A stretch of 64,000 bases of DNA from Candidatus Moraniibacteriota bacterium (GCA_963743885.1 CAVURJ010000002.1:433706-497705); one strand, 5' to 3'. Shown: positions 1 through 28,330, numbered from the stretch's first letter. The notes: generated by a model not told the origin, from the sequence alone. Translations and numbers: made by a program.

Positions 1-734
1 TTCGATACAACCGATGGGACAATCTTTCCATTGATTAAGAATCCGCGAGGAGCGTTGAGCGTCGCGAAGCTTATAGTCGTACCAGTCTGGCTCTGCATCT
101 GAAAATCCGTCCCATCATAGATGACAGTCACGATCTGCCCTGCTTCGATATCACCATCAGCGAGATCCTGGTCGTGGTTTTTCTTGATGGTCTTTGCACC
201 GAGAGCGTTCACGTTGAGCGTCGCCGCGCCGGTGTTGGCAGTGTTCGCTTTGAAGACGACCATCATGCCGGCATAGTACGCGGCCGGGACTGGATCGAGC
301 GTGATAGCATAGGCATCGGTCGCACCAGCATCAGCACCGTACCGCACTGAGTCGATAGCGCTGATCAAAAGCTTCCCCGCCTGCGTCGCAAACGCGAGGA
401 TACCATCTATAACATCGTTCCAAAGCGTCGAGTCAATGACGATCTCAACGACGGCGCCGCCAGCGTGCGCCTGGGCGGTGCCTCCAATACCACGGGCGCA
501 TGAGACGATTCTTGAGCTATCAACGACTCCGCTAAGACGTTCCATCTTTTCAGGAGTCTGCACACCAGATGAACTAACCCTATCTACAGTGACAGTTACG
601 CCGGTCCCGGTAGGGAGCGACGTCGGAGATATGAGTCCGAAATTATCAATAGAGGCATTCGAGATACCAGAGGCGTCGAGCTGCCACCCGATATTCGGAG
701 CTATCTTCTTAAACTTGTCCAGTGCGCTTGACAT
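1..734 (-). CDS. Phage tail fibre protein, N-terminal part (gene runs off the left edge, 3' truncated)
   Basis: Minus-strand frame is open with no stops across 1-745. ATG at 734 sits 9 nt after the U-run of the terminator element. Translation contains ...AGMMVVFKANTANTGAATLNVNALGAKTIKKNHDQDLADGDIEAGQIVTVIYDGTDFQMQ..., a classic tail-fibre (TLNVNGLGAK) motif. The plus-strand ORF 436-741 is antisense to it. Confidence 0.5.
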   Translation of the reverse strand, partial: MSSALDKFKKIAPNIGWQLDASGISNASIDNFGLISPTSLPTGTGVTVTVDRVSSSGVQTPEKMERLSGVVDSSRIVSCARGIGGTAQAHAGGAVVEIVIDSTLWNDVIDGILAFATQAGKLLISAIDSVRYGADAGATDAYAITLDPVPAAYYAGMMVVFKANTANTGAATLNVNALGAKTIKKNHDQDLADGDIEAGQIVTVIYDGTDFQMQSQTGTTISFATLNAPRGFLINGKIVPSVVS

Positions 735-743
735 AGTGTAAAT

Positions 744-855
744 AAAAAAAGCGGCCTACCAGGTCGCCGCGCATTGGCGCTTGCCTGATAGGTCGCTTGG
801 TCCGCAATGTATGTGCTGCGGATATCGATCTACACCAGAATGATACCACCTTTCC
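744..855 (-). repeat. Conserved late-operon intercistronic element, copy 1 (body + GC hairpin GCGGC/GCCGC + U7)
   Basis: 100% identical over ~112 bp to 10079-10191. Hairpin at 751-770 with the T-run at 744-750 on the minus strand acts as a Rho-independent terminator after gene 872-2842. The next ATG is 9 nt downstream. Confidence 0.7.
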
Positions 856-871
856 ATGAATGGCGCAAGTC

Positions 872-2842
872 CTACCTGAACCAGGAGGCTGGTATCTTCT
901 TCGGCTTAATGACTCCCCTGGACTGTATCTTGAGGATGGTATATTCCGTATCCATCGAGTTCGACGATATCCTGAATTGGATGGCATACATCTCCTTTCC
1001 GACTTTCACGGCGCTCTTGATAGATGCCTGGGAATATGTCGTTGGGGCAGCCTCCTCGTCCTTGAGCGTTATCTCGCCCAGGAGGCCGGTCCAGAACTCG
1101 CTGACGCTGAGTGTATTCGCCACTGGCTTCGACGAGATGAGCGAGAAACCTTTCTTTGCCGTCAGGCCGTATACCTCGAAGGTTATATCCCCTTTTGCCC
1201 GACCGAGCACGCACAGAGCGTCCTTTATCTTCGCGGCGATAGTCTCATCGTCCTCGTCGATCGGTATGAGTCCGGAGATATACGATGTGCTGAAGGCTAC
1301 TCCGTCATCGCCGAGGATGTTCTCTGAGATCTCCGTCAGACGCGCGCCGGTCGTCGGTACGCCCAGAAGATGCGTATTCCCGTCGGAATCAGTGAACTCG
1401 AGGAACTGTCGGAATCCGATGGTCCACTTGTAGAACCACTCATCAAGCTCAGCATCATACCCGAAGATCATATCATTCTCATCGCCACCCTCTGATGCTG
1501 AGAATATGAGCTTCGAGTCGTAGAAATGCCCAGCCATCATCGGAAGCGATTTGAGCGAGGCGAATGTCGGACGGATATTCTCGGACATGGACTGTGTCGA
1601 GAGTATGTTCGTGACATTTTCCTTGTTGTTAAGCCTCGTTACTCCCTGGATAGACGGGAACCACAACGAGTCTTTCGCTTCCACGACCGCTCCTGGAGAC
1701 GTCGTTCCTACGGCGCCGGCTATCTTCGTTGGTGACGGGATGATGATTGTCTCGCCTGTTGAGGTGTCAACCAGGAATTGAACCTGCCATATCGACCCAT
1801 TCCCACCCGGGCCGCCCGTGATCGCTGTCGGCGCTGGATCTCCCTTTCCGGTCCGGAAATGCCCGACATACTGGAGCGTCTCGCCACATCCCTCATCGAG
1901 CTTCACCCAGCCACCGCCATCGGCATCGGCGAATGAAAAGAACTCCGCTCCGGTACCTGAGAAAAACACGGTATATGGATGGTTTTTCGGGTCGATTCCG
2001 ACGAGACGCGTCTCTGAGCGCCTGATCATGGAGAAGGCCGGGCCTTCCGTGGTATCGAAATCAGGGGCATCATTGAACGGGCTCGCCACAGCACTCGCAT
2101 CATCTTGGTATGAATTGGTGTATGCAATATCGAGCAGCTTCTCCTTTCCGGACTCGGTGGAATAGTACACCTGGTACTTCAGTGCGCCAGGGACGGCGGT
2201 CCATGACAGATCCACACGCTCGTTCGCATCTTTGTTCCATGTATTTCGCTCCTTGTTTACCGTGATATTGTACTCTGCACAGACGGGCGTCTCGCCTATA
2301 CCATTGAGAGCTGTCACTTTGTAGTAGAGATTGTATGTTCCTGACGTCAGGATGTTTCTCGTACCAGTCAGCCCAGTCGGGGTATCAAGCTTCACGAATC
2401 GGTCGAATATGGTTCCATTGAAGCGCGTAAGCGGATTCTCACCATTCGCTATGAGCAGATACCCGCCAGCCATTTCGAACCAGTACCGATTCGCATCCGT
2501 CGAGAAGGTTGCACCGGAAATCTCCGACCAGGTCACAGCATCCGATGATGAGTAGCCCTTTCCGCTACCGCATATCGCCAACAGCTTCTGAGTACCGTTC
2601 GATGCAGTGTATACCCCGGCGCCGACGATAGAGTCCTCACCTGGAACCTCGAGACCATATTTGGCCGTTCCCCAGCGCACCTTCCATTTTCCGTCCTGTG
2701 CCTGATAAAGATTGAGCGCTTCCTTGGCGTATATTTTTCCCAATACAATATCATCAAGGAGCGTCGCAACGCCCTTGAACACCTTTATGGACAGTGCCCA
2801 CCTCTTCTTTTGTGCGAACCCTCTCAGATTGGGAAACTTCAT
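872..2842 (-). CDS. Phage structural protein (tail/baseplate-like), 656 aa
   Basis: Large ORF in the structural module between the large virion protein and the tail fibre. No specific motif recognised. Confidence 0.4.
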   Translation of the reverse strand: MKFPNLRGFAQKKRWALSIKVFKGVATLLDDIVLGKIYAKEALNLYQAQDGKWKVRWGTAKYGLEVPGEDSIVGAGVYTASNGTQKLLAICGSGKGYSSSDAVTWSEISGATFSTDANRYWFEMAGGYLLIANGENPLTRFNGTIFDRFVKLDTPTGLTGTRNILTSGTYNLYYKVTALNGIGETPVCAEYNITVNKERNTWNKDANERVDLSWTAVPGALKYQVYYSTESGKEKLLDIAYTNSYQDDASAVASPFNDAPDFDTTEGPAFSMIRRSETRLVGIDPKNHPYTVFFSGTGAEFFSFADADGGGWVKLDEGCGETLQYVGHFRTGKGDPAPTAITGGPGGNGSIWQVQFLVDTSTGETIIIPSPTKIAGAVGTTSPGAVVEAKDSLWFPSIQGVTRLNNKENVTNILSTQSMSENIRPTFASLKSLPMMAGHFYDSKLIFSASEGGDENDMIFGYDAELDEWFYKWTIGFRQFLEFTDSDGNTHLLGVPTTGARLTEISENILGDDGVAFSTSYISGLIPIDEDDETIAAKIKDALCVLGRAKGDITFEVYGLTAKKGFSLISSKPVANTLSVSEFWTGLLGEITLKDEEAAPTTYSQASIKSAVKVGKEMYAIQFRISSNSMDTEYTILKIQSRGVIKPKKIPASWFR

Positions 2843-2854
2843 ATCTCGTGTCGT

Positions 2855-3499
2855 TTACATACCGAAACCCCAACCCGCCGGATTATCATCCGGCATGCTC
2901 GGTGGAAGATTCGGAATCTTCATCATGCGGAGCGCTTCCTGGGCGTTCGAGAGATTGACCTCTCCTTGGGAGAAATCCTCATCATCTATTCGCATCATGC
3001 CGATTCCGTACTGTACAATCATCGTTGGGTCGCTCATCTCCGGCTCCGTCGTCTCCTCACCGGTGGAGAATCGCGTCTCTTTCTTGAGATACTTAAACTC
3101 AGCCGTTCCGGAAGCAGCCGGAAGTGTACGAAGATTCTTGCCTTCTATCCAGGCGTAATACGGAGTAATACCCATGCGATCGGCCCGCACACCTTCCTGC
3201 GCGCTGACGACCAGGTAGAGGCTTCCTCCTACAGACACGCTGGCTCGGCCATCCGGCTCCCGGAAGAAATCCAAGAACTCGAGCCCGTGCAGATCTGTAC
3301 CGGTGCCACCGCACGCTACCGAAGCGTCGTTCTTGAGCTCCGGCCACTGTACACCCTCACGGACACATCTCTCATGCTCCGTTATGGCGCTATTCGCATG
3401 GCGGACCATAGTCGCCATCTCGTCGCTGCCGCTCTCTGGATACTCGGTATCCCCCGCGTACCCGACATGCATTTGCTTTATGATTTCCTGAAAATCCAT
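2855..3499 (-). CDS. Hypothetical phage structural protein, 214 aa
   Basis: Tightly packed in the late operon. No recognisable motifs. Confidence 0.35.
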   Translation of the reverse strand: MDFQEIIKQMHVGYAGDTEYPESGSDEMATMVRHANSAITEHERCVREGVQWPELKNDASVACGGTGTDLHGLEFLDFFREPDGRASVSVGGSLYLVVSAQEGVRADRMGITPYYAWIEGKNLRTLPAASGTAEFKYLKKETRFSTGEETTEPEMSDPTMIVQYGIGMMRIDDEDFSQGEVNLSNAQEALRMMKIPNLPPSMPDDNPAGWGFGM

Positions 3500-3516: not shown

Positions 3517-6500
3517 TTAGCGTCGGATTTTTCTGACCTTCTTAATCCTCGCCGGACGGAACGACATCATTCCGCGCCGCGAGATCGGTGCCGCCTTTGA
3601 ATCCATGAGTGCGAGCTCGAGGTCAATCATGTCCTTATCGATGAGTGGATAGCGAAACTTCTCCGGGAGCTTCTTCTCCGCTTTCGGCTTATTGAACGCC
3701 CCGCCGTATGATTCGAACTTCTCAGCTTCATTCGCGAGCGTATCTATCTGATTCTCATATTCCGAACGGTCCAAATCATCCACAGTAGGATCTGATACGA
3801 GCTTCTGAAGGAGCATATACTTCTTCTCAGCGTTATCGCGCCATTCCTGAAAGTTCTTTGCGCGCTTGTTCCCAGACATCCTGGCATTGAGGAGCTTCAC
3901 CGTGAACGAATCCTTCCGCTCCTGATACGCTGTACCGTCGTCTTTTTTCCTCAAGACATAGTCTCCGGCATCACGGAAGCTCTCATCTGAATCTTCGAAA
4001 TCCTCTCTCTCGATAGCCTGCCGCGCGAGTGTCTCGTTCTTGAAAGTCTTCGTATCAGACCTAAGTGCCGGAACGAAATACTTCCCGTCCTTGAGACGAT
4101 AGACACCTTCACCAACATCACCGGCCTCTCCCTGCTTGAGAGATCCACCAGCCTTGAGCCCCTCCTTCTCTTTGTTCGCTGAGCGGGAAGCCATAAGCGA
4201 TGAGTAGTATCCGCCTCGCTCGCCTTCCGGAAGCATTCGGAAAATCTCATCCTGTGTATCACCGAGAGGATTGCTGTCAGCTTCACGATAATCCTGCACC
4301 TCCTGAAGAGAGTTTTTACCGAAGAATAGTCCTTTTGCCATGTTGTACGGGCTCGATTCCACCGGCGTCATCACCTTGCCGGATGACGTCTCGGCAAATC
4401 CATCCATGAGCGTACCAACACCTTCGATGGAGTTCTTGATCTGCTTACCACCGAATGGTGGAGCGACCATGAAGAGTGGATCGGCGAAAGACTTGCTCAC
4501 AAGTAGACCACCACCGAATCTCGTCGGATCTTTATCTCCGAAAAGCTTCTCCCTTGTAGGAAGGTTGATTCCGGATCCCATGATGTCCTTCTTCCCATAT
4601 TCTGGATACATAGCCGCCACGGTCTGCCCAAGAGGGAGATTCGACAGTGCCTCTCCGGCGATACGTCCGCCGGCTCGCGTCAGTCCGGTACCGACAGTAT
4701 CTGACTCGCTATACGCTCCATACGCATCGATCATGGCCTGGATAGGATCAATGGCGACACCGCTTCCGCGTATCTCTTCAGCCGCCCGGTTCATCAGCCA
4801 CGTCGCCACAGAAAACTCCATGAGACGCTTCGCCAGAACAAGCTTACTCGGATCATTCTTCGCCCAGTCTCCGAATACTCTCCACTGGTTCGCTACCTCG
4901 AGCTGGAACGGTGCTATGAGCTGCGTAATCTTCGATTTTTGGAGGATAGGTACCTCTCCGATACCGCGGCCAGCCACCAGCTTCCGCGTCCAATCATCGG
5001 CATACTTCACCGGGTCGGACACGCCGAGTCCGAGCGCCTTCTGATACTGCGCGTTCCATGTGAATGTCGATCCTATCTTGTCCCCTATAGACGTAATCCA
5101 GACAGCGAAATCTTTCGTCCTATTGAGGATTCCAGGCTCAAACTTGTCATATCCGTTGAAATACCTCTCGTTCAGGAAAACGGAGCGCTTCGACGGAACA
5201 TCATCCTTCAGAATATCGACCATGCTATGGCCTATGGCGCGCGCCGAGTTCCTGACCCCCGCATTCGCGATTCCGTTCGGTATGCCGAAGAATTGTGCAA
5301 GCGCCGACGATGCGTTTCCAACGATTGTGTTCGCCTTCACTCGGCTATTGAGCCAATTTATCGCCTTGAAAGCCTGCCGTCCGAACATATTATCCTGGAA
5401 CGGCCTGTCGATTGGGTTCGTCTTACCGGCAAGGTCATTCGAGAAATTATCTAGGAACTTCAGGAAATTGTTGAGCTTGTTATCGGATGCCTCGGCAAGC
5501 GCCTTGGCATTGAACTCCGCCATTCCTTCTGGGGAGAGATTCTCGGTCATATACTCCTTCACCTTTCCGGCGTCCTTGATACCAGCGAGATCCTTCGCCA
5601 TGCGGACAGCGTCGCGGTCCTGGAGTCCTTTTCCGATGAGCAAGTTCTTGATTTCGTTCGGATCGGAAACACTGGCTATGCTTTCGAACGGATCCATCTT
5701 TTTCGAGAGCTCCTCCGCCAGTCCGACACTGGTATCGTCAAAGAACGCTCCGCGTGGAGTCTTTGACTTTATCTCTTGGTCTACTCCTCGGAAGCGCTGG
5801 ATGTGCGGATCAATATGCTTCGCGTACGCATTCGCCTTGATGTAATCGAGGAAGCCTCCAACGGCATCCATTTCGGTCTGCTTCCCAGTCCGCTTCTGAG
5901 CGAACGAGATCCACTTCGAGCTTGGCTTTGTGAACTGCGAAGACACGGCGAGAGCTGGATCGATATTCGCAGGCGTGTCGAAGATGTTCATGAGACCCTT
6001 GAATCCATCCGCCATCTCCTGGAAATGACGGTAGTAGTTCTCACGCTTCGGAATGACCTTAGTGCTCTCCGGGTGCAGCGGGTGCGTCGGGAAATAGAAC
6101 TCGCGGATGCGGTTCGTCTCATCGAGCATGTTGTCGTACATGTTCCGGAACCACTGGTCCGCCCGGACGACTTTGTCGGCCCCATCCTTTCCGAACTCTT
6201 TGACGAGGTCGTCATACGACATCCTCATCCCATCTGGCAATCCGGTATCTCCGTATTGCTGTACCGCCTGCGAAAGCCTGCTCCCCTTCTTGATACCGAG
6301 TCCGTCTACGATATGTTTCTGGAGTGCTTCGAGCTGCATACGCTGCTCATCGATAAACGCCCCCTTAGATGCGTCAAAAGGATCGAGAAGCTCGCTCTTC
6401 ACCTTCCCATAGGAATCGCCGAATACGTCCTCAAAGTTCCGATAGACGTCGCGCGTTCCAGCTTGGAGTGCTGATATATCCTTGAGCTTCACCGGGTCGA

Positions 6501-8112
6501 TTCCCTCCATGATCTTCGTATTGAGGTCTCGCTTCCTGGCGTAGTATTCCTTGAGCGTCTGATACGCCACGCGGTTCTTCAGGATGTTCTTCGTCATGTC
6601 AGAGCGGAAATCCATCATGGACTGGTGTCCCTTCGGATACCCAAGCCGCCCGAGCTCTGCGATGATCTTGCCTTCCTCCACGCCTATCTTCGCCGCTTCG
6701 GCCTTCTTGTATCCCATCGCGCGCAAAACATCCGGGACGTTCGCGATTTCCCGGAGATCCTGGATGATTTGCTTTCGCTTGTTGAAGGCGTCCTTCTGGT
6801 ACTTGTTATACCCTCCGGACGGAAACAGTGGCTCTGCCGGCTTCACAGGAGCCATAGGCTTCGCTGGATCAGGTATAGCATCCAATTCCTTCGATATGCG
6901 CTCGTCTATGCTCATAGGAGCGCTCTGAGGTGCTTTCTGGGGTGATGGCACCATCCTAGGCGCTACAGGAGCTCCTGGGGAAGTTTCCATGAGATTCCTG
7001 ACGGTTTCCTTAGCTGCGGCATTCTTCCTGGCGTTCAGAGCGTTCGCTTCGAGAGTGTTCTGGTTCCGTGGAGGACGACCGACGTTTTTGAGGCTCATAC
7101 CAGGCTGCGGCAGAGCATCCCGGACGGCCCGGCCGACATCAGAAAGCGTCGGGGAGGCTTTGCGCTCCACGACTTGCTCCGGGATGAGCTTCTCCTTGCG
7201 GATCCCATATACCGGAGACTGCGATACCTTGTCGAATCCAGCCTTGAAGGCCTTCCCAGAATACCGCTCCCCTTCTCCAAGCTTCGGTATCACCCCTGGC
7301 TTTCCATCAGCGTCGGAAGCGAATCTCACGACACCGCCATCACTCCAATGAGACTGTAGCCTTTCAGTTTTCAGAGGCTGTGTCCTGTTTCGTATCGAGT
7401 TCTTCGCCGCTTCCGGGACAGACTCCATGATCTCCTTCACCTTCTTCGCTGCTCCAGTAGCATCGTCAATACCTTCCTTCGCGAGAATGGTTGTCGGACG
7501 CATCAGGCCAGAAACGACACCGCCGAGAGCTGTACCCATTCCAGGTTTGAAAGTATCCGCGTTCGTCTTCTCTTCTTTCGACATCTTGTCGGCTACATCA
7601 TAGGCATACCCAAGTCCAGCGCCGCCAGCGACGCGTTTCACGACGCTCGGAGACATGAGCATCTTTGCTGTAGCCTTGATCTTGCCAAACGGAGCGATCT
7701 CTATGACAGACTTCGCTGTATCGGCGAGCATCTTCTTCGGAGTAAGATCCGTCACCGTCGGAAGAATATCGGTATTTCCAGCCTTGTACTGCTTCCTGAC
7801 ATTCTTGTCGACAGCGAATGCCGCACCCTCACCGATTACCTTCGGAGCCTTCGACAGAACGTTCTTCGTCCCGGAAAACATCTCTCCAACGTTATGGCTC
7901 GCCTCACGCACGAAATCCCGCGTCCGGAGTTCCGGAGCGGGCTCGAAATACCGTTCCACCGGCCGCGAACGCATCAGTTCGCTTGCGCTGTCCGCGGCCG
8001 ATTTCCCGATACGGGATATTTTCGATGTAGTGTTACCGAGAGCGTCAATGGCGCCATCTCCGATGTCGGAAATCTTCTTCTTCGCTTTTCGGTAAAAGTC
8101 AACGAGCGCCAT
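3517..8112 (-). CDS. Large virion protein, 1531 aa (tape-measure-like or internal/ejection protein)
   Basis: Single uninterrupted 4.6-kb ORF with Gly-rich and coiled-coil segments. Its position between head and tail genes is typical of tape-measure or internal virion proteins. Confidence 0.4.
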   Translation of the reverse strand: MALVDFYRKAKKKISDIGDGAIDALGNTTSKISRIGKSAADSASELMRSRPVERYFEPAPELRTRDFVREASHNVGEMFSGTKNVLSKAPKVIGEGAAFAVDKNVRKQYKAGNTDILPTVTDLTPKKMLADTAKSVIEIAPFGKIKATAKMLMSPSVVKRVAGGAGLGYAYDVADKMSKEEKTNADTFKPGMGTALGGVVSGLMRPTTILAKEGIDDATGAAKKVKEIMESVPEAAKNSIRNRTQPLKTERLQSHWSDGGVVRFASDADGKPGVIPKLGEGERYSGKAFKAGFDKVSQSPVYGIRKEKLIPEQVVERKASPTLSDVGRAVRDALPQPGMSLKNVGRPPRNQNTLEANALNARKNAAAKETVRNLMETSPGAPVAPRMVPSPQKAPQSAPMSIDERISKELDAIPDPAKPMAPVKPAEPLFPSGGYNKYQKDAFNKRKQIIQDLREIANVPDVLRAMGYKKAEAAKIGVEEGKIIAELGRLGYPKGHQSMMDFRSDMTKNILKNRVAYQTLKEYYARKRDLNTKIMEGIDPVKLKDISALQAGTRDVYRNFEDVFGDSYGKVKSELLDPFDASKGAFIDEQRMQLEALQKHIVDGLGIKKGSRLSQAVQQYGDTGLPDGMRMSYDDLVKEFGKDGADKVVRADQWFRNMYDNMLDETNRIREFYFPTHPLHPESTKVIPKRENYYRHFQEMADGFKGLMNIFDTPANIDPALAVSSQFTKPSSKWISFAQKRTGKQTEMDAVGGFLDYIKANAYAKHIDPHIQRFRGVDQEIKSKTPRGAFFDDTSVGLAEELSKKMDPFESIASVSDPNEIKNLLIGKGLQDRDAVRMAKDLAGIKDAGKVKEYMTENLSPEGMAEFNAKALAEASDNKLNNFLKFLDNFSNDLAGKTNPIDRPFQDNMFGRQAFKAINWLNSRVKANTIVGNASSALAQFFGIPNGIANAGVRNSARAIGHSMVDILKDDVPSKRSVFLNERYFNGYDKFEPGILNRTKDFAVWITSIGDKIGSTFTWNAQYQKALGLGVSDPVKYADDWTRKLVAGRGIGEVPILQKSKITQLIAPFQLEVANQWRVFGDWAKNDPSKLVLAKRLMEFSVATWLMNRAAEEIRGSGVAIDPIQAMIDAYGAYSESDTVGTGLTRAGGRIAGEALSNLPLGQTVAAMYPEYGKKDIMGSGINLPTREKLFGDKDPTRFGGGLLVSKSFADPLFMVAPPFGGKQIKNSIEGVGTLMDGFAETSSGKVMTPVESSPYNMAKGLFFGKNSLQEVQDYREADSNPLGDTQDEIFRMLPEGERGGYYSSLMASRSANKEKEGLKAGGSLKQGEAGDVGEGVYRLKDGKYFVPALRSDTKTFKNETLARQAIEREDFEDSDESFRDAGDYVLRKKDDGTAYQERKDSFTVKLLNARMSGNKRAKNFQEWRDNAEKKYMLLQKLVSDPTVDDLDRSEYENQIDTLANEAEKFESYGGAFNKPKAEKKLPEKFRYPLIDKDMIDLELALMDSKAAPISRRGMMSFRPARIKKVRKIRR

Positions 8113-8132: not shown

Positions 8133-9371
8133 TTATGCTACGGGTTCGGTGGCAGTCGTCTCCTCTGAATAGATCGGTTTTCCAAAGATGTCGTATCCAA
8201 CGATCTTCCGGTCTTTATTATTCTGATTATTCGGATCCGAGTCATCGAGCCAATCCTGCGCGCCATCAGAGAGCCCGTCGAGATTCCACTCTTCCGTGTA
8301 ATCAGGAACCTGGAGCTCCGCCGGTGCGTTCACGTCAATTTCCGCCGCCTGGATCTCATCGATGTTGATGCCCTGCTCCTGCGCCGCGATCGTGATGTTC
8401 TGCTTGAGTGTAGCCACCTTGCCGGAGATCTCAGCCACCTTGCCGAGGAACTTGTTGAGGTTCGCATCACTTTCTGCCTTAAGATCCTCCTGTTCCCATT
8501 TGTCAGCATTCTTCGAAAGCTTCGATATAGCTGATTCGTAGCGCTTGTATTCCTCCTTAGCAGCCTTCAGCTGCGTATCGTGCCATTCGTCGGCCTTCTG
8601 GATGCGGAGGGTGTACCGGTCCGTCTCGTCGCGCTCTGCCTGGTTCTGCTCGGCCGTCTGCGTGCCATATCCCTCAAGCTTCTCCTTGCGTTCTTGCCCG
8701 GCCTTCTTCCCGAGCACCTTAGCGAACCTTCTGGCCGCGGACGAGTTCGATGCCCCAAGGACACCGAGATTGATATTGGTACCAAAGATATTCTTCTTGA
8801 CGTCATCCGCTACCTTCTCGAGACTCTCTTTCTGGTTGCTCTGGATGAGCTGTTTGTTCCCAGCGATAGCCTCTTTCGTCTTCTCGAGGTAGCCCTTCGC
8901 CGCCTCTTTGTATTTGTCGCGAAGCGTCGGAATCTTCCCTATATCGGACTTCATAGAAGCTAGGTAGCCCTTCGCGTCCTTGAGCGTCGAGCTCGAGTCC
9001 TTCCAACCGGCGCCAATCATATCGAGCAGCTTCGAACTCTTATTCGACTCGTTCTGCCCGGCATACGAAGCTCCATACAGATCCTTGAGCGATGGGACAA
9101 CATTGCTGTTTCCATCACCACCTCCAGTAGATTGCATCTGACCACCACCGTCTTCGGAGGATCCGGCAGAAGAATACCCACTTTTTGATCCAAGGAAACC
9201 ATCAGGCGTAGCGAGGCCCTGCTTCGCTCGCTGGTATATGGCGGCGACATTTCCGCTCGTTATGGCACGACCAGCCTCCTGGAGACCAGGACGCCCGAAC
9301 AACCTTTCCGAAAGACCTTGCCCACTTTTACCGAGAATCGGCATATCATTGTCAGCCAATCGACCGCGCAC
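8133..9371 (-). CDS. Hypothetical phage structural protein, coiled-coil and Gly/Ser-rich, 412 aa
   Basis: Late-operon position and long coiled-coil K/E-rich segments. Confidence 0.35.
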   Translation of the reverse strand: MRGRLADNDMPILGKSGQGLSERLFGRPGLQEAGRAITSGNVAAIYQRAKQGLATPDGFLGSKSGYSSAGSSEDGGGQMQSTGGGDGNSNVVPSLKDLYGASYAGQNESNKSSKLLDMIGAGWKDSSSTLKDAKGYLASMKSDIGKIPTLRDKYKEAAKGYLEKTKEAIAGNKQLIQSNQKESLEKVADDVKKNIFGTNINLGVLGASNSSAARRFAKVLGKKAGQERKEKLEGYGTQTAEQNQAERDETDRYTLRIQKADEWHDTQLKAAKEEYKRYESAISKLSKNADKWEQEDLKAESDANLNKFLGKVAEISGKVATLKQNITIAAQEQGINIDEIQAAEIDVNAPAELQVPDYTEEWNLDGLSDGAQDWLDDSDPNNQNNKDRKIVGYDIFGKPIYSEETTATEPVA

Positions 9372-9386: not shown

Positions 9387-9415
9387 TTGACAAAATTATT
9401 GATTTACACTATACT
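9387..9415 (+). promoter_or_regulatory. Sigma70-like promoter TTGACA-17-TATACT driving the plus-strand moron
   Basis: TTGACA at 9387-9392, a 17-nt spacer, and TATACT at 9410-9415. ATG of the downstream gene is at 9435. Confidence 0.45.
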
Positions 9416-18513: not shown

Positions 18514-20226
18514 TTAAAGAGAAAACTCTTCTGGTTGCTTGAAATTGTCCCATTGTTTGTAGTCCTTCTTTTTCGTTGTGACTGGTGGAGAAACTCGGTT
18601 GAAAAGTTGGACTGTTCCAAAAAATGACATGACTCTGTCATCATGAGCCCCCCTGTCAGCCTCTGGCTTTCCAGTTCGTTCATTGATGATAAACGTGAAC
18701 ATCTCCTCGATGGTCTCCTTGTCGTAGATTGTGAACGACTTCGATTCGATGGAGTTTCTTCCATCTCCGCACATGATCGGACGGGTTGTCTTATTTGTAT
18801 CCCATCCAAGCTTCTTCTCCTTCTCGTCCTCTTCCTCTTCTTTGTCATCATCCTTTTTCTCTTCGTCTCCACCCGATTTTCCATACCCTATTTTTGGCAT
18901 CACGAAGATATTGAACTTTCCTGACCTGTTCAGTGAAGACAGTCGCTCCATCTCGCTTCCGCCACCGTTGTTGCGCTCGAAGGCGACAGTGGGCGGAACG
19001 CCCGTGATATCGTAGATCTTCTCAAGAATCGGGAATATATCTTCCGTCATGTTGGCTGCCACCCCATGCCTATGGTGCATAAGAGGAAAATCAAGCTTAT
19101 TCCTCGATAGGAACTTCACGTGGTTTGCATCAGAACCGCCCTGTGAACAGTCAGCGAATACTAAGAAAAACTCGCCCTTCTCGATAGGACGGTACTGCTT
19201 GAGCATTGGGTCGGACGGATACATGAGATCCTCCTTCATTGGCTCTATGGTGTTCGAAAGATACTTGTTGAGTATATTTACATCGAAATAGCAGCTTCCG
19301 GAAGACAGAAACGCCTCTCGATCCTCGAACGGGTATTCTCGGACCATCTTCGCTCTTTCCGTTGGCTTGAGCTTAGACTCGATCTTCTTGATGTACCAAT
19401 AGATCTGCTCTCTGGTAAGCCCAAACCGCTTGCGCTTCGCCTCCCATTCGGCTTGGATGATATATCCGTCTGGAACAGGGCGGCTATACTCCGGGTTCTC
19501 AAACCACGGGAAGAATCTCGACCTGAAATCGCCAAGCCCTTCTTTGCCTGCGAAATACTCCTCAGGCCAAAATCCTATCCTAGACTCACCTGTTGATTCA
19601 CGGAATATCTTCCCGATTCCATCAGCCACCTGCTGCTCGGCACCAATGACAAGATCCCTCGAATTGAGCACTGGAGTATTCGGGTAGAATCCACACTCCG
19701 ACCAGTGGATATTCTGAAGCGTTCCGCCGCGTCCAAGAGTCTTCGCTCCAGCTGTTCCGACGAATAACTCCGACCCTCGGAAGCCTTCGATATACGACAC
19801 CTTGTTGTCGGTTTTAAGAAATGCCTTCCTGTCTATGTTTGCCTTTTGCAAAAAGGAATCGATGAATAGGTCGACTCGCCTAAAGAGCGGCTTCGTGTCT
19901 GCTTCCTTGTGCGATATGATCTGACCACCTACCGCCGGTATATGTCCGAGCTCGGCCATAATGAAGTCAGCAGTCAGTATGGCATCGATAATCGACGAGA
20001 ATCCCTCCTGTCGCGCCTTGAGGTCGTTTTCGCGTATTCCCTGCATGTCTGGATATTCTTCCGTTAGGATGTCGTAATACCTGTTTTGTACGCCATTAAA
20101 TATGAACGGTATCTCTTCGCCCTTCTTGTTTCTGATGCGGAAATTGTCCTGGATGAACCTTCTATAATCGATTTTTGGCATAGTCGTTGATTTACGAAAT
20201 ATAGGTTTCGGTCCCTCGCCGGACAT
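18514..20226 (-). CDS. terL: Terminase large subunit, 570 aa
   Basis: N-terminal ATPase region (..GGTLQNIHWSECGFYPN..) and C-terminal nuclease-like region (..FADCSQGGSDANHV..), with an acidic K/D/E insertion. Follows the small-subunit gene. Confidence 0.8.
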   Translation of the reverse strand: MSGEGPKPIFRKSTTMPKIDYRRFIQDNFRIRNKKGEEIPFIFNGVQNRYYDILTEEYPDMQGIRENDLKARQEGFSSIIDAILTADFIMAELGHIPAVGGQIISHKEADTKPLFRRVDLFIDSFLQKANIDRKAFLKTDNKVSYIEGFRGSELFVGTAGAKTLGRGGTLQNIHWSECGFYPNTPVLNSRDLVIGAEQQVADGIGKIFRESTGESRIGFWPEEYFAGKEGLGDFRSRFFPWFENPEYSRPVPDGYIIQAEWEAKRKRFGLTREQIYWYIKKIESKLKPTERAKMVREYPFEDREAFLSSGSCYFDVNILNKYLSNTIEPMKEDLMYPSDPMLKQYRPIEKGEFFLVFADCSQGGSDANHVKFLSRNKLDFPLMHHRHGVAANMTEDIFPILEKIYDITGVPPTVAFERNNGGGSEMERLSSLNRSGKFNIFVMPKIGYGKSGGDEEKKDDDKEEEEDEKEKKLGWDTNKTTRPIMCGDGRNSIESKSFTIYDKETIEEMFTFIINERTGKPEADRGAHDDRVMSFFGTVQLFNRVSPPVTTKKKDYKQWDNFKQPEEFSL

Positions 20227-20309: not shown

Positions 20310-20765
20310 TCAGAGAGCCTTATCCTGCACCAGATTGTCAGGCATTGAGTAAAATATATTCTTTTTCATGAACGACTGCTCCTCTCCCTTCTTGTTCTTG
20401 TAGACCACCTCGATCACGGATGCCTTTAGGAAAACTCCTCCAGCTTTTTTTATAACGTCCCTGATGTCTGAATCGGAGATGTCTGGATCAACCTGCATTT
20501 GCCTGAGTGTTTTGGCATCGAGGTGCTGCTTGCTCTTTTTCAAAAGTGTTTTATCATCGAGGCCAACCTCTACCAGAAGAGACTTCCAGCCGTCTGAATC
20601 TTTGAGTTTTTGAGGATTTTTGGCGTAGGCCGGTGAAAATCCAGCCTCAGACATAGCCGGGCTTATTTTTCCACCATTTTCCAACGCAATCTTCAAAGCC
20701 TTTCTTTGTCGCATTGTTGGCTCTTTTTTCAGATTTTTTTTGCTCTTTACGGCCTTCTTCGGCAT
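20310..20765 (-). CDS. terS: Terminase small subunit, 151 aa
   Basis: N-terminal basic tail then RQRKALKIALENGGKISPAMSEAGFSPAYAKNPQKLKDSDGW, the characteristic HTH of Terminase_2-type small subunits. Located immediately upstream of terL. Confidence 0.6.
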   Translation of the reverse strand: MPKKAVKSKKNLKKEPTMRQRKALKIALENGGKISPAMSEAGFSPAYAKNPQKLKDSDGWKSLLVEVGLDDKTLLKKSKQHLDAKTLRQMQVDPDISDSDIRDVIKKAGGVFLKASVIEVVYKNKKGEEQSFMKKNIFYSMPDNLVQDKAL

Positions 20766-20773: not shown

Positions 20774-21166
20774 CTATTCCTTAGGCGAATAATATATATT
20801 TATATGCTTTATCTTGTGCACTAACATGTTAAGAGCAGACGAAAAGCCTTCTGCTGATTCCTGGGTAAATGCTCTCTCTGCCACATTACGATCGTGGATG
20901 CCTCTTTCATCGCATGCTTTTCGCAGCCATTCTCTCTCGCCTTCCACGACACAAAGAATCTTTTCTAGATATGATTCGACAGCTTTATCGCAGCATGAAA
21001 CCATATCCGTTCCGATCATGTCGGCATGGATACTCGGAGGGAGGACGAGATGTCTTCCTTCTTTTACATTTGCAAGTGGAGTAAACTTCTCACACGGACC
21101 AGCGTGCATCTTTCCACAAAAATCACACCATGTTCCTTCCGTTTTCTTCAATTGATCTCCTATCAT
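20774..21166 (-). CDS. Cys-rich hypothetical protein (CxxC...CC), ~130 aa
   Basis: Start moved to the internal Met (MIGDQL) so it does not overlap the next gene. Motifs WCDFCGKMHAGPC and VSCCDK. Confidence 0.3.
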   Translation of the reverse strand: MIGDQLKKTEGTWCDFCGKMHAGPCEKFTPLANVKEGRHLVLPPSIHADMIGTDMVSCCDKAVESYLEKILCVVEGEREWLRKACDERGIHDRNVAERAFTQESAEGFSSALNMLVHKIKHINIYYSPKE

Positions 21167-23102: not shown

Positions 23103-23333
23103 CTATACGTTCTCAAGAAAATCTTTCGGATCATATGCCTTGATGCTGTTTACGGACAATCGCCTCATCTCGTGGTCTTCCCGTATCTTCTGCTTCACGC
23201 CACGAATATCTTGGTAGCAGTGCCGGCAGAGGAAATGCTGCTGGTAGAGATCCACTATCGAGACTACGAACGGCTTCAGCTGGCAGTGGCTGCAGAGAAG
23301 CTTGTTTTTCTTTTTTTTGAATGGGAGCTTCAT
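23103..23333 (-). CDS. Zinc-finger protein, 76 aa
   Basis: CSHCQ...CRHC Cys pairs with a basic N-terminus. Confidence 0.3.
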   Translation of the reverse strand: MKLPFKKKKNKLLCSHCQLKPFVVSIVDLYQQHFLCRHCYQDIRGVKQKIREDHEMRRLSVNSIKAYDPKDFLENV

Positions 23334-23686
23334 AAGATCTCAATAATGACCATGTCCGACTCTTGCTTTCTCTTCGCTATAAGCGTCACCGACTCCACCA
23401 CCTCGCCGTTATCATCAGGTATCACCTTCGCCGCCACTATCCCGTCGATGATCGGCTTCACGTAGAGATTGTCTGGGTCTCGCCTGTTCCCTCCCTTGAA
23501 CCGAGCCTCGATGCTTATCCTGACCGGGGCGCTGACGACCCGCTTCTCCCTTGGTATCGCCAACGTCTCCATGTACACCACGTTCTTGATATCCGACATC
23601 ACGCTCGACCGCTTCCTCCCATGGAGATTCTGGATATCATTCCAGCTCGGGCAGTACAGGTTTTTTATTTCCAGACGCATAATCAT
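23330..23686 (-). CDS. rusA: RusA-like Holliday junction resolvase, 118 aa
   Basis: Size (~120 aa) and motif RRDPDNLYVKPIIDGIV matching the RusA D-x-D-N-x-x-K-x-x-x-D signature. Confidence 0.6.
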   Translation of the reverse strand: MIMRLEIKNLYCPSWNDIQNLHGRKRSSVMSDIKNVVYMETLAIPREKRVVSAPVRISIEARFKGGNRRDPDNLYVKPIIDGIVAAKVIPDDNGEVVESVTLIAKRKQESDMVIIEIL

Positions 23687-24063
23687 GCAAACTCTTCAGG
23701 TATCACTACATTGTCAGGATGCTCACGGAAGAGCTCAGCCATACGCTCTACCGGATACCCAGCTATCCCGCACCCGACCTTCGTCACGAGAAACGTATGC
23801 TTCGGCATCAGTCTCGCTGTACGGAAAAGCGTCTCAGCGCTCTCTTTCAACTCATCATCCGTACGCTTCTCGAAATCCTTTCCGAGAGTAGGGAAGGCGT
23901 AGCATCTACCAGTCAGACCTTCCCCCTTCCCAAAACATGCTCCGAACCTCTCGGAAGCAACCTTCGCGGCTCCTCCGGAATGGATACCTGCGAGATTGCT
24001 CCCGAAGACGAATATCTCTCCTTCCGCGAGCTCTTGGATGTTTTCCGGAGTGTACCTAGTCAT
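23683..24063 (-). CDS. Rossmann-like (SLOG/DprA-LOG-like) nucleotide-binding domain protein, tentative, 126 aa
   Basis: Strand-then-Gly-loop pattern IFVFGSNLAGIHSGGAAKVA and a later VTKVGCGIAGY. Family identity not resolved by eye. Confidence 0.25.
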   Translation of the reverse strand: MTRYTPENIQELAEGEIFVFGSNLAGIHSGGAAKVASERFGACFGKGEGLTGRCYAFPTLGKDFEKRTDDELKESAETLFRTARLMPKHTFLVTKVGCGIAGYPVERMAELFREHPDNVVIPEEFA

Positions 24064-25489
24064 ACCACTCTTCCTTTGGCACTTCCCGGATTACCTTAAG
24101 CTCTGACGTCCTGACCTTCCCATCACAGTCATTCGCGACCACTATCGACCTCTTCGGCACCTCACACTCGAGGAGCGCCATGTCTTCCCATCCACGTCCG
24201 AACGCGAGAGCCCAGTTCTTGTCCGCTACATGCAGGCCGTAGGAGCAGCTTGATTCCTTGTCTTTGTTCACTTCGCATTCCGACTTCTTCCCCACCTCAT
24301 ACATGAACGATCTATCATAATCGGAATAGAACCTCACATCTCTCTTGTGAACCGCCTTGTATAGAATCGCGTTCTTTCCCTTCACGACGATCGGATACCG
24401 CTTGGCATAATCCTCGAACGTCGGCTTGAATGCTGGTATCACGATGAGATGAGAATCCTTGTTCATCTTCACGGTGACATACTCCTTCTGTCCGTTCATG
24501 ATACGCACGACGTTGTATCCGTGGCACTCGATGGACTTCGCAGAATATGCCGATACCATCGCCTCTCCGTAAAGCTTGACCTGAGAGCTTTCCCGCATCT
24601 CGCGGACCTGAGAGCTTTCCCGCATCTCGCGGACCTGAGAGCTTTCCCGCATCACGCCGACCTGAGAGCTTTCCCGCATCTCGCGGACCTGAGAGCTTTC
24701 CCGCATCACGCCGACCTGAGAGCTTTCCCACATCACGCGGACCTGAGAGCTTTCCCGCATCACGCCGACCTGAGAGCTTTCCCGCATCACGCCGACCTGA
24801 GAGCTTTCCCGCATCTCGCGGACCTGAGAGCTTTCCCGCATCACGCGGACCTGAGAGCTTTCCCGCATCACGCCGACCTGAGAGCTTTCCCGCATCACGC
24901 CGACCTGAGAGCTTTCCCGCATCTCGCGGACCTGAGAGCTTTCCCGCATCACGCCGACCTGAGAGCTTTCCCGCATCTCGCGGACCTGAGAGCTTTCCCG
25001 CATCACGCGGACCTGAGAGCTTTCCCGCATCACGCCGACCTGAGAGCTTTCCCACATCACGCGGACCTGAGAGCTTTCCCGCATCACGCCGACCTGAGAG
25101 CTTTCCCGCATCACGCCGACCTGAGAGCTTTCCCACATCTCGCGGACCTGAGAGCTTTCCCGCATCACGCCGACCTGAGAGCTTTCCCGCATCACGCCGA
25201 CCTGAGAGCTTTCCCGCATCTCGCGGACCTGAGCATCTCCTGAAAGATTCAGGAATGCCTCACCTTTGGAAATGACAACCGCATTCTCAAAATTGCGCTC
25301 GTACACGATAGGATCCTCGTACGTACCACCTTCGATGTAGATCGTGCCTTCAAAATCAGGCTTGATCTTATCGAGGTCTTTTTGTTTTCTAACGATTATT
25401 TCCTTTGACATAGCCATTTTGTGCTTATGTTCTGAAATTAAGAGATACGCTATACCGACCGCTGCGGCGGAAAAAAATATCATAGTCAT
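24056..25489 (-). CDS. Membrane-anchored protein with ~24 in-frame 9-aa repeats (MRESSQV[GR][VE]) and a C-terminal globular domain, 477 aa
   Basis: N-terminal TM helix; central block encoded by the 27-bp tandem array; sensible non-repetitive N- and C-terminal sequence in the same frame. Confidence 0.5.
   Translation of the reverse strand: MTMIFFSAAAVGIAYLLISEHKHKMAMSKEIIVRKQKDLDKIKPDFEGTIYIEGGTYEDPIVYERNFENAVVISKGEAFLNLSGDAQVREMRESSQVGVMRESSQVGVMRESSQVREMWESSQVGVMRESSQVGVMRESSQVRVMWESSQVGVMRESSQVRVMRESSQVREMRESSQVGVMRESSQVREMRESSQVGVMRESSQVGVMRESSQVRVMRESSQVREMRESSQVGVMRESSQVGVMRESSQVRVMWESSQVGVMRESSQVREMRESSQVGVMRESSQVREMRESSQVREMRESSQVKLYGEAMVSAYSAKSIECHGYNVVRIMNGQKEYVTVKMNKDSHLIVIPAFKPTFEDYAKRYPIVVKGKNAILYKAVHKRDVRFYSDYDRSFMYEVGKKSECEVNKDKESSCSYGLHVADKNWALAFGRGWEDMALLECEVPKRSIVVANDCDGKVRTSELKVIREVPKEEWYD
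24578..25238. repeat. Perfect/near-perfect 27-bp tandem repeat array, ~24.5 copies (GACCTGAGAGCTTTCCCGCATC[T/A]CGC[G/C])
   Basis: Directly visible head-to-tail 27-mers with only 2-3 variable positions; all three frames on both strands stay open across it. Confidence 0.9.
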
Positions 25490-25871: not shown

Positions 25872-26726
25872 TTACTTCTTTGCGTTGATTAGAAATGTCT
25901 TGAGCGTGTGGAGGTTAAAATCCGTCACGTAGTCCGCGGCCATCATGCGCTTTATCGCCGCGCCGATCTGGTCATCATCGAACACTGAGAGATCTTTCGC
26001 CGCCTTCATCATCGGCTTGGACCATGCATGCCACTGGGCTACCGTCCGGAATCCAGGATCTCGTCCGGAGATACGGAGCTCATCCGCCCACTCCGCGATG
26101 ATCTTGATATGCCGAGACTCATGCCGGCGGAACCATTCCACGAACTGGAAGCACTGCATCGGCTCATGATTCTCGCAAAGGTACCGTCCGCGCATCGGGG
26201 CATTCTTGCATCCCTCTTTCGCACACGTGGAGGCCGGTGCGCCTTGCGCAGCGGAACCTTCTCTTTGTGTTACCTTCTCTTCTGTGTTACCTTCCATTGC
26301 CCTGGTGTCACCCGGCTTTATGTCGTTTTTGTCACCCGGACCGGTTGCCCGTATGTCACTCGGCTCCGGTTGCCCTAGTGTCACCCGGCTCGACTTCCAT
26401 TGCGATTGATCGACGAGGACGTATATATTCTTCATCTGACGCTTCGTCCTCTCATCCCTCCGTCGGATGACAGTGATGATAGAGCACTCCTCAAGCTTCT
26501 TGATTGACCGTATGACAGTGCGAGTAGTCATGCCATGCTGCTTGGCTATCCCAGCGATGCTTGGGAAGCATTCCTGACGCGTGTCAGCGTGCCGGCAGAG
26601 GCTCATGTAGACGCATGTTGCCGCTGCACCACAAATCTCCGAATATCCTCCATCGAGGTACTCGTCATCAATGCGGAACATCTGCCGGCGCCGCTTATCC
26701 CTGATCTCTATCTGCTTATCTTGCAT
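25872..26726 (-). CDS. Phage replication initiator/replisome-organiser-like protein with winged HTH, ~285 aa
   Basis: wHTH segment SIAGIAKQHGMTTRTVIRSIKKLEECSIITVIRRRDERTKRQMKNIYVL. Internal iteron-like DNA repeats. Start taken at the internal Met (MQDKQIE). Confidence 0.45.
   Translation of the reverse strand: MQDKQIEIRDKRRRQMFRIDDEYLDGGYSEICGAAATCVYMSLCRHADTRQECFPSIAGIAKQHGMTTRTVIRSIKKLEECSIITVIRRRDERTKRQMKNIYVLVDQSQWKSSRVTLGQPEPSDIRATGPGDKNDIKPGDTRAMEGNTEEKVTQREGSAAQGAPASTCAKEGCKNAPMRGRYLCENHEPMQCFQFVEWFRRHESRHIKIIAEWADELRISGRDPGFRTVAQWHAWSKPMMKAAKDLSVFDDDQIGAAIKRMMAADYVTDFNLHTLKTFLINAKK
26290..26400. repeat. Iteron-like direct repeats (TGTCACCCGG x4, CCGGTTGCCC x2, CTTCCATTGC x2) inside the replication gene: candidate origin
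   Basis: GGTGTCACCCGGC, TTGTCACCCGGA, ATGTCACTCGGC and GTGTCACCCGGC at ~25-bp spacing. Confidence 0.5.
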
Positions 26727-26971
26727 ACACGATTCCTTCTGATCACCCAGCAATGGTTTAGCTGCCCGTACGCCCCCATCCGACACTCATCCGTCTTGAT
26801 GAGCATTCCGACCTTCGTCATGTCGGTCATCGCCCGCCTGATCGAGGTGATTGGCGCTCTCAAACCGGAGAGCTTCAGCACTTCGAACGGCGTGAACGAC
26901 AGTCCGCGATTCTTCCCAGAGAAGACCTCAAGGATCTTCTGTTCCTGGAAATTAGCGTTCTTGATACCCAT
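26708..26971 (-). CDS. Small winged-helix DNA-binding protein (regulator/excisionase-like), 87 aa
   Basis: ..LSFTPFEVLKLSGLRAPITSIRRAMTDMTKVGMLIKTDE.. helix-turn-helix pattern, upstream of the replication gene. Confidence 0.35.
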   Translation of the reverse strand: MGIKNANFQEQKILEVFSGKNRGLSFTPFEVLKLSGLRAPITSIRRAMTDMTKVGMLIKTDECRMGAYGQLNHCWVIRRNRVCKISR

Positions 26972-27002
26972 ATGATGCGTTTAATGTTCATCGGGCGCCC
27001 TA

Positions 27003-27581
27003 TTAGAACTGCTTGATGTATTCGCAGCTCTCCGTGGCGTCACCGGTGTTGTAGAGGCAAAGAAGCTGCTTATCGCTCATTCCGAGCGCCTTCCTATGTG
27101 CTACCCAGCCGGCCACCGCCTTTGTATCCTCGTCCTTCTCGAAGCAGACATAGCTCCCGTCGCCCGGGATGTCGAATCCATACCGGTTATACTTTCCGAT
27201 AGCCTCGCACTTGGAGTAGTTCTTCACTCCGCGCGAAGACTCCTTCATGAAGATGTAATCGACGAGATCCTTTTCAGGCGCCGCCTCTACCTCGATCTGC
27301 TTCGCATACGCCACAGGTACAATCGACGGATTCTCGAATGCGAAGTCGTTCGGCTTGATGAAGTCAGCTGTCTCCTCCCTGACGAATCGCATGGTATCTG
27401 CGCCTTCGTAGCGGTAGGAAATGATGCTGAACGTCCATCCTATGCCAATCGAGAGCATGAGAGCTCCGATGAATACCTTGGAAGACGTGATGCGCTTGTA
27501 CTGCTTTCCGGCATACTGCCAAATAGGGCGAAATGCCTGCCTAACCTTGAGCTTGATGATGAACCACATATGATTCTGCAC
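27003..27581 (-). CDS. Membrane-anchored hypothetical protein, 192 aa
   Basis: One N-terminal TM helix and a Cys-containing extracytoplasmic domain. No recognisable motif. Confidence 0.3.
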   Translation of the reverse strand: MQNHMWFIIKLKVRQAFRPIWQYAGKQYKRITSSKVFIGALMLSIGIGWTFSIISYRYEGADTMRFVREETADFIKPNDFAFENPSIVPVAYAKQIEVEAAPEKDLVDYIFMKESSRGVKNYSKCEAIGKYNRYGFDIPGDGSYVCFEKDEDTKAVAGWVAHRKALGMSDKQLLCLYNTGDATESCEYIKQF

Positions 27582-27626
27582 AGCTCACCCAACTGTTTGT
27601 TTTTATTTTTTTAATGCTAGATTCCG

Positions 27627-27941
27627 CTAGATGACATCGGCGCGATTGATGCTGCTCCTGATTCGACGAGAAGTTCCTTCAAGGCTCTGGCAGATTTCTC
27701 CGACTGCCGCTGCCGTCTTTGAAGAAAAGGCTATCTCTCTATCATCGCCAGTAACATCACAACCAAGAGTGTTTGGCCTCTGATCAATGGCACATGAAAA
27801 CTTTTCTTCAAGAAGCGTGGCAAGTTCAGCGAACTCTTTTGCTATGCAAGTAGCCCTGAGAAGCTGCTCTCTGAGAGAACCCTCTTCAGCTGGACACTCG
27901 TCTCCTGGATGCTTGGACGCTGCTTCGCAATTTAAAATCAT
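27627..27941 (-). CDS. Hypothetical protein, 104 aa
   Basis: Right-most ORF of the phage-like block, with an AT-rich putative promoter region to its right. Confidence 0.3.
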   Translation of the reverse strand: MILNCEAASKHPGDECPAEEGSLREQLLRATCIAKEFAELATLLEEKFSCAIDQRPNTLGCDVTGDDREIAFSSKTAAAVGEICQSLEGTSRRIRSSINRADVI

Positions 27942-28330
27942 ATGAAAAATGTGATTGGTTTTTTATCAGAGGATCGACCACTTTTTTTTCCTCCTTTCGA
28001 TGAGCTAGGGGGTCTTTCCCTATCGACTCTATGCTCACCGAAAGCAAACAAAAAAAGCTTCTTACGTTTGTAAAAAGCTTTCTTTTTTGCCTTATTTAAG
28101 CACTATGTCCTGCAAGGAACATTATGAGACATTGTATATAAAAACCCCTGGAGAATAAAAGTCTATAAAATGCCTGGCGCGGATATCCGTTTTTATTCCG
28201 TATCACGATATATTTCATCTCTTCGTGTCTACTTCCTCCCCGTCGAGGATCCCTGATATTTTTCCGCTGATCTTTTTTTAAAAAAATAACGGGTATTTAT
28301 TAAGCCCGATTTTACCAGCACTCGCTCGGA

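Follow-up and report, generated by a model that had tools for sequence, protein, structure and literature searches.

Gene Order of the Locus

The DNA examined here is a 64,000-nt stretch from Candidatus Moraniibacteriota bacterium (GCA_963743885.1, CAVURJ010000002.1:433706-497705), referred to as the window throughout, and the subject is the block of phage genes that fills its left part. Minus-strand open reading frames (ORFs) run in a near-continuous series from the left edge to ~28 kb (Table 1), the early genes lying to the right and the packaging, head and tail genes following towards the left edge. A first-pass annotation made from the sequence alone had recognised a phage or prophage block here with a head-to-tail late gene order on the minus strand; the same order was found in the present analysis, and the terminase, portal, capsid and nozzle matches described below bear out the block itself. 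Positions 1 to ~28,100 very probably represent the larger part (~85%) of a ~32-kb short-tailed temperate prophage in a Moranbacteria chromosome.

All of the ~25 phage ORFs in the window are intact and free of frameshifts, and they keep their synteny with relatives. The GC content of the phage part (52.3%) is close to that of the next 22 kb of host DNA (53.0%). At the nucleotide level no match was found in GenBank phages (megablast, 50,697 phage records) or in E. coli genomes. Loci used for comparison are given as L numbers; the closest relative of the phage is L001, with 69% identity in TerL.

Table 1. Features of the window and their coordinates (aa, amino acids).
Feature	Position	Strand	Remarks
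Tail-fibre N-terminus	3-734	-	244 codons; ORF open to left window edge; phrog_4900 tail protein 1.7e-11
Terminator-type repeat, copy 1	740-872	-	between nozzle and fibre genes; long hairpin then U7
Tail nozzle	872-2842	-	656 aa; AlphaFold2 (AF2) model, mean confidence (pLDDT) 85.8
Portal-to-nozzle adaptor	2855-3499	-	214 aa; 33-45% identical to homologues
1531-aa virion protein	3517-8112	-	same position in relatives, 37-46% identity
412-aa conserved virion-module protein	8133-9371	-	34-44% identical to 400-428-aa proteins of relatives, same position
Reverse-strand insert ('moron')	9388-10065	+	promoter, membrane protein, hydrophobic ORF
Terminator-type repeat, copy 2	10076-10205	-	downstream of 488-aa gene; 96-100% identical to copy 1 over 111-125 nt
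Two variable large ORFs, 488 aa and 511 aa	10221-13233	-	after capsid gene
Major capsid protein	13569-14729	-	386 aa; HK97 fold, T7-like affinity, inserted domain
Putative scaffolding protein	14752-15741	-	between portal and capsid genes; acidic, low complexity
Portal	16233-17996	-	587 aa from ATG at 17996; 67% identical to L001
Terminator-type repeat, copy 3	18001-18059	-	directly upstream of portal gene; L001 has a copy there (12080-12128)
Large terminase TerL	18514-20226	-	ATPase and nuclease domains fused in one ORF; probable start 20181 (555 aa)
Putative small terminase TerS	20310-20765	-	upstream of TerL; 65% identity to L001 neighbour
RusA-like Holliday-junction resolvase	23330-23686	-	phrog_34 3.1e-13
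477-aa protein	24056-25489	-	tandem 9-aa repeats and DUF7666-like C-terminus (PF24703 5e-5, below cut-off)
Replication initiator, winged helix-turn-helix (wHTH), lambda-O-like	25872-26786	-	HTH_36 5e-14; phrog_270 1.7e-13
First three early-operon genes	26708-27941	-	104, 192 and 87 aa; 87-aa ORF: phrog_9069 3.4e-16
Right prophage-host junction	28095-28118		L024 homology from the right stops at ~28105; attachment (att) core expected here
Host-side flank	28105-31359		conserved intergenic segment, palindrome and three genes; gene set present in L024
L024 alignment	28105-28289		84% nucleotide identity
L024 alignment	28373-28427		93% nucleotide identity
GGDEF gene	28452-29294	-	Pfam
L024 alignment	29731-30891		86% nucleotide identity
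PD-(D/E)XK exonuclease gene	29734-30891	+	Pfam
Hemerythrin gene	30949-31359	-	Pfam
L024 alignment	31468-36512		89% nucleotide identity

Packaging and Head Genes

Terminase and capsid are among the genes that establish the phage identity of the block. TerL matches the terminase family phrog_24361 (1.7e-13), and residues 1-310 of its AF2 model match the terminase ATPases of T4 gp17, P74-26 and HK97 with E values of 9e-10 to 6e-5; the C-terminal half gave a poor model, and TerL has a weak match to the nuclease region of T4 gp17. The 386-aa capsid protein, when used alone, found no family match. A HMMER scan of 1.84 billion cluster representatives yielded only 97 relatives, and the family profile built from 24 of them reached the major capsid proteins of the PDB (8e16 at 4.8e-24, 9jwb at 4.7e-14, 8i4l at 1.7e-8), including 4bml and T7 2xvr, over a range of 4.8e-24 to 4e-4. 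The capsid is 71% identical to that of L001 and 65% to that of L003. A major capsid protein of HK97 fold and a large terminase, two marks of tailed double-stranded DNA phages (Caudoviricetes), are thus both present.

The portal was matched to PF23899 (SU10_portal) at 8e-7 and 28.3 bits, under the cut-off of 30, and to phrog_1216 at 4e-4; a sequence search against the PDB gave no match, and the position and size of the gene are in keeping with a portal. The candidate for the scaffolding protein, conserved in L001 (53%) and L003 (29%), has no family match and was called from its position and its conservation in relatives. TerS was likewise assigned from position and conservation, with no family match in the Pfam and PHROG scans. 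Of the packaging and head genes named in the first-pass annotation, terL and capsid were confirmed by family or fold, the portal is probable from its below-cut-off family matches, position and size, and terS and the scaffold stand by position and conservation only.

The organisation of TerL varies among relatives. It is a single ORF of 555-570 aa in the window and L001, and the best database matches listed for it are mostly proteins of 315-340 aa covering the ATPase half only. In L022 the gene (10001-11938) is split into pieces of 334, 59 and 227 aa. Intein or homing-endonuclease domains were seen in a few TerL relatives (P0100).

Tail and Other Virion Genes

The tail was characterised mainly through the nozzle. 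The top 28 Foldseek matches of its model in the PDB are podovirus tail nozzles without exception (E 2e-18 to 6e-11), among them those of cyanophage A4, Pa223, SU10 (7z4b), T7 gp12 (7boy) and P22 gp10. The adaptor has no Pfam match of its own and was assigned via its homologues, six out of ten of which match PF24175 (SU10_adaptor), the best at 2.8e-10. Adaptor and nozzle follow the head genes, as in a short tail of the podovirus type. Tail tube, sheath and tape-measure families gave no match in the scans; the one exception is the 511-aa ORF, which has a weak similarity of the coiled-coil kind to a tape-measure PHROG (1.2e-4). Nothing phage-related came from profile searches of the adaptor and nozzle families or from searching the PDB with the sequences of the portal and of the 1531-aa protein. 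The tail fibre does run off the left edge, as had been annotated: its frame is open there and it matches a tail-protein family.

The remaining virion genes are less readily named. The 1531-aa protein has no Pfam, PHROG or PDB match, and its position suggests an internal or ejection protein; the 412-aa protein has no family match. The 488-aa and 511-aa ORFs, which have weak or partial relatives only (a 361-aa protein of L001 at 36%, L033 at 29%) and weak family matches of the coiled-coil kind, are probably accessory virion proteins.

Early Region and Replication

The RusA resolvase and the wHTH initiator with iterons, both named in the first-pass annotation, were borne out by phrog_34, by HTH_36 and by four repeats of TGTCAC(C/T)CGG within the initiator gene (26306, 26330, 26354 and 26379; spacing 24, 24 and 25 nt), so that this gene appears to harbour an internal predicted origin as lambda O does. 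Of the annotation's 'many' zinc-ribbon ORFs a few remain, which were recognised by eye from a CxxC...CxxC pattern and have weak Pfam hints. The 104-aa and 192-aa ORFs at the head of the operon had no match in the Pfam and PHROG scans. In the 477-aa gene, 24.3 copies of a 27-nt unit (24578-25233, 94% matches, Tandem Repeats Finder score 1151) encode the 9-aa repeat MRESSQVGV / MRESSQVRE, N-terminal to the DUF7666-like domain.

An iteron-bearing initiator, with no integrase in view, could also keep a phage-plasmid outside the chromosome. This is highly improbable: iterons within the initiator gene are normal for the lambda-O type, the ORFs scanned include no partition or plasmid-type genes, and the element runs on without a break into chromosomal DNA (DnaK operon, release factor, tRNAs), with an empty site in a relative of the host and integrases in relatives of the phage.

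Right Junction and Host

The right end was placed by comparison with L024, a close relative of the host (its AcrB falls in the same 90% cluster), which has the same neighbourhood without the phage. The gene order there is GltX, M23 peptidase, S9 peptidase, GGDEF, a 100-aa ORF, exonuclease, hemerythrin, CsoR, HlyD and AcrB. Four segments of the window align to it, and no L024 homology was found left of ~28,105; the phage therefore ends at ~28,095-28,118. Host continuity and an unoccupied site are thus documented on the right side of the prophage. The junction falls within the AT-rich gap at 27,950-28,450 in which the block had been annotated to end, and the spacer that holds it separates the 3' ends of the convergent S9-peptidase and GGDEF genes. 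There is no tRNA at the phage boundary, again as annotated, the nearest being at 37785. Searches for the junction sequence gave neither a second copy within the window nor a match in the loci of the relatives. As to the other flank, an orthologue of the M23 gene is also present on the source contig, which is 500,284 bp long. The same material was assembled a second time (Logan ERR12035942, with proteins identical to those of the window), and there GltX, M23 and S9 are found on a piece ending 224 nt past S9; this GltX-M23-S9 piece is the expected left flank of the prophage.

Since the phage lies within the chromosome, its host can be assigned directly. The host-like genes noted to the right of the block are Moranbacteria genes by the identity of DnaK, which is 85-90% identical to proteins named Candidatus Moranbacteria or Moraniibacteriota (one Minisyncoccota, one Patescibacteria group); the right part also encodes a resistance-nodulation-division (RND) efflux pair, a release factor, a DsbA-like protein and HrcA-GrpE-DnaK. 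The host is an uncultivated, ultra-small bacterium of the Moranbacteria, in the candidate phyla radiation (CPR)/Patescibacteria.

The palindrome near the junction, annotated as a perfect one of 24 bp, was measured as 28 bp (14+14, 28329-28356) and is situated on the host side. It was considered as an att or telomere site and rejected: being host-side, and within an 84-nt stretch (28290-28372) that is missing from the empty-site genome L024, it is not the attachment site. The segment is flanked by near-direct repeats ACTCGCT(C/T)CG and resembles a small inserted hairpin element.

Integrase and Left End

No tyrosine recombinase exists in the 64-kb window, as found by tblastn with the relatives' integrases and by a hidden Markov model (HMM) built from them; the first-pass annotation had not seen an integrase or recombinase either. 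Its usual place was learned from close relatives, counted as those that are distinct, have a nozzle identity of at least 47% and offer enough sequence. In seven of the eight, the genes for fibre, holin and M23 peptidase are followed by a tyrosine integrase, 3.5-5.7 kb on from the nozzle. For instance, L003, a Moranbacteria prophage with a nozzle identity of 51%, reads nozzle, fibre, holin, M23 peptidase, integrase and then host genes, and its integrase arrangement recurs in L007, L012, L013, L017, L025 and L028. In the L022/L007 prophage (contig JBFHIG010000006.1) a 101-nt direct repeat with 93% identity (L022 1626-1726 and L007 16492-16592) brackets ~31.2 kb, with the integrase ~550 nt from the repeat. 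The window has no copy of this repeat. Directly after the integrase gene (L007 15977-16021), a 45-nt part of the repeat recurs in inverted orientation.

Relatives are widespread in the same group of hosts. Nozzle homologues occur mostly in bins of Moraniibacteriota, Parcubacteria and other Patescibacteria, 79 IMG/VR loci with such homologues are on contigs of up to ~43 kb, and relatives sit in long Moranbacteria contigs beside host genes. Given the synteny of the relatives, the window would lack only the last 4-5 kb of the prophage, and the most probable reason for not seeing an integrase is that it falls in this missing end. The annotation had put forward three options without choosing one; the relatives' integrase position and the 101-nt repeats of one of them favour that of a prophage with att site and integrase left of the window.

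The following account can be proposed. Nearly the whole phage genome would be transcribed in one direction, from the early genes, the initiator with its internal origin, RusA and TerS/TerL, through portal, scaffold, HK97-type capsid and accessory or internal virion proteins, to adaptor, nozzle and fibre. The phage would have entered the intergenic region between the convergent genes of the S9-type peptidase and the GGDEF cyclase by site-specific recombination, leaving its right junction at ~28.1 kb. The 4-5 kb beyond the left edge would hold the rest of the fibre, holin, endolysin, tyrosine integrase and attL. From this we infer a temperate lifestyle, and a prophage that may still be inducible.

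Several points weigh against this account. As the window stops short of the left end, the presence there of integrase, attL and host flank is a prediction. No repressor or lysis gene was identified within the window. In L026, a close relative, sequence past the nozzle is available for 6.6 kb and no integrase was seen there; among the distant IMG/VR relatives, at 34-41% nozzle identity, most have none within 10 kb, and temperate life is thus not universal in the wider family. Furthermore, the source is a metagenome-assembled contig, in which an assembly join is possible on sequence alone.

Another reading is a defective (cryptic) prophage from which the integrase and lysis end has gone, in which case an integrase would be missing left of the window as well. 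The window has no recombinase, repressor or lysis gene, L026 is without integrase over the stretch mentioned, and the host flank is variable, with GGDEF and hemerythrin proteins 38% and 30% identical to those of L024 amid DNA that is 84-93% identical. Set against this, the ORFs are intact and syntenic, the fibre frame continues unbroken to the left edge and the lysis-integrase end is kept in those seven of the eight close relatives; we give loss of this end a small but real chance.

A chimera, in which the contig of a free (lytic or extrachromosomal) phage was misjoined to the Moranbacteria chromosome near 28.1 kb, is improbable. The metagenomic source allows for it, and the second assembly gives short pieces only, of 9.3 kb and 3.7 kb. 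It is opposed by the L024 homology break, which sits between convergent genes, the missing 400 nt of their spacer being expected at the other prophage end; by the relatives integrated in long Moranbacteria contigs, one of them bounded by att-like repeats; and by the equal GC on either side. The lytic-contig-junction and phage-plasmid options of the first-pass annotation found no support, as the empty site and the integrated relatives speak otherwise.

Host Genes Next to the Junction

With an integrated prophage ending at ~28.1 kb as the preferred reading, the neighbouring genes have to be considered as to whether they belong to it. The exonuclease matches phage exonuclease families (phrog_69 at 3.5e-31, and DUF2800), and copies of it are found beside the early genes of L001 (62% identical) and beside the integrase end of L007 (47% identical). 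If it and the GGDEF cyclase were phage genes, the prophage would reach ~30.9 kb. This extension is hardly likely, and these two genes were rejected as phage genes: L024, which is free of the phage, carries the exonuclease at 86% nucleotide identity together with a GGDEF gene and intergenic DNA up to 28,105, and the L007 exonuclease is outside the 101-nt att repeat.

The exonuclease, DUF2800-like and of phage type, adjoins a prophage in three lineages (window 29734-30891, L001 310-1473, L007 17244-18377). In the window and L001 it neighbours the early end, in L007 the integrase end. Yet L007 has it beyond the att repeat, and L024 has it at the empty site. The gene could be the sign of a hot spot for insertion, or else a relic of an older prophage.

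Between window 28452-31359 and L024 5647-8494, the exonuclease and the intergenic DNA are 84-93% identical, whereas the GGDEF proteins share 38% identity and the hemerythrins, 30% identical, are inverted. Genes appear to be swapped in cassette fashion around a conserved exonuclease gene. The GGDEF protein of the window retains its GGDEF motif and RxxD site.

Further Features of the Late Operon and the Host Part

A hairpin of 55-59 nt followed by U7 is repeated at three late-gene boundaries with 95-100% identity, and two of the copies extend to 111-125 nt. Copy 1 folds at -46.6 kcal/mol (z = -2.8). Besides the copy upstream of its portal gene, L001 has another at 20910-20964. The repeat belongs to no Rfam family, the Rfam scan of the window yielding two tRNAs only. 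It may serve regulated read-through (antitermination) or else link modules in recombination.

The reverse-strand insert begins with a near-consensus promoter (TTGACA-17-TATACT, 9388-9416). Its first gene (9435-9812) encodes a 125-aa membrane protein, signal-peptidase-like (S26/S24-like) with a GDSM motif and a Peptidase_S26 match of 4e-4, below cut-off; the second ORF (9868-10065) encodes 65 hydrophobic residues. Homologues occupy the same slot in L029, L070, L026 and L007, and the insert is a candidate for expression in the lysogen. An additional homologue stands outside the att repeat in L007 (16786-17193).

In the host part, the DnaK operon is directly preceded by a low-GC island at ~50,000-58,600 (40.8% vs ~53% elsewhere). 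A series of minus-strand ORFs occurs in it, of which the four that were scanned (54902-58596) have no Pfam match; the island also contains a 498-aa NUDIX-fusion protein and a NADAR-domain protein. It may be another acquired region. At 37785-42059, tRNA-Gln is followed by large ORFs of 431 aa and 609 aa, which had no Pfam or PHROG match and are not integrases.

Comparison with Known Systems

CPR/Patescibacteria make up a large share of bacterial diversity and are almost entirely uncultivated, and their phages are known mainly as statistical host predictions. The prophage described here adds a concrete, checkable example of lysogeny in Moranbacteria, with one junction placed within ~25 bp by empty-site comparison and a virion type (HK97 capsid; portal, adaptor, nozzle and fibre) assigned by fold, and it offers a reference layout for ~80 related metagenomic contigs. 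It reveals no new kind of element or mechanism. Temperate phages have been reported as dominant among predicted Patescibacteria phages, and ~44-kb prophages have been described in Paceibacteria (PMC12911398, PMC12455944). Our literature search found no paper on Moranbacteria prophages.

Among characterised phages, the nearest architecture is that of Escherichia phage SU10 (Kuravirus) and of T7-like and P22-like podoviruses, with which the window phage shares the portal-adaptor-nozzle tail and the nozzle fold. Its portal and its adaptor homologues give weak Pfam matches to SU10_portal and SU10_adaptor, and its capsid profile reaches T7-like capsids. The nozzles, on the other hand, are only ~10% identical in sequence, and the Pfam scores of the window's own proteins are below the gathering cut-off. 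Unlike SU10, T7 and P22, the window phage would be temperate and integrated, and it combines a lambda-type replication module with a CPR host. No phage RNA polymerase was found in it. The phage is outside the genera and families of SU10, T7 and P22; it lacks sequence relatedness to Kuravirus, and the likeness is one of architecture and fold only.

The replication module recalls lambda O. The initiator is similarly a wHTH protein (HTH_36 and 'O-like' PHROGs), with four direct repeats 24-25 nt apart in its own gene. In contrast to lambda, no P/DnaC-type loader was recognised beside it.

The closest systems are prophages and phages of uncultivated Patescibacteria (CPR), known through metagenomes, such as GCA_041596615.1 JBFHIG010000006.1, GCA_003507475.1 DNVQ01000031.1 and the 79 IMG/VR contigs, which have the same module order. 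Identities in the structural module range from 34-54% (nozzle) to 65% (capsid) on contigs of 30-43 kb, and these relatives reside in CPR chromosomes and carry a tyrosine integrase behind their lysis genes. The window differs from them by two extra large ORFs (488 and 511 aa) after the capsid and by its integration site; TerL is fused in the window and L001 and split in L022. We consider it possible, though rather doubtful, that the prophage and its ~80 metagenomic relatives form a distinct, undescribed short-tailed temperate lineage specific to CPR/Patescibacteria. Traits of such a lineage might include a TerL normally encoded in two genes and fused here, insertions recurring next to a host PD-(D/E)XK exonuclease, and the identical long hairpin at three late-operon boundaries, which would imply processive antitermination. 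If the lineage is real, the defined empty site and junction would provide a handle on lysogeny in organisms for which no genetic system exists.

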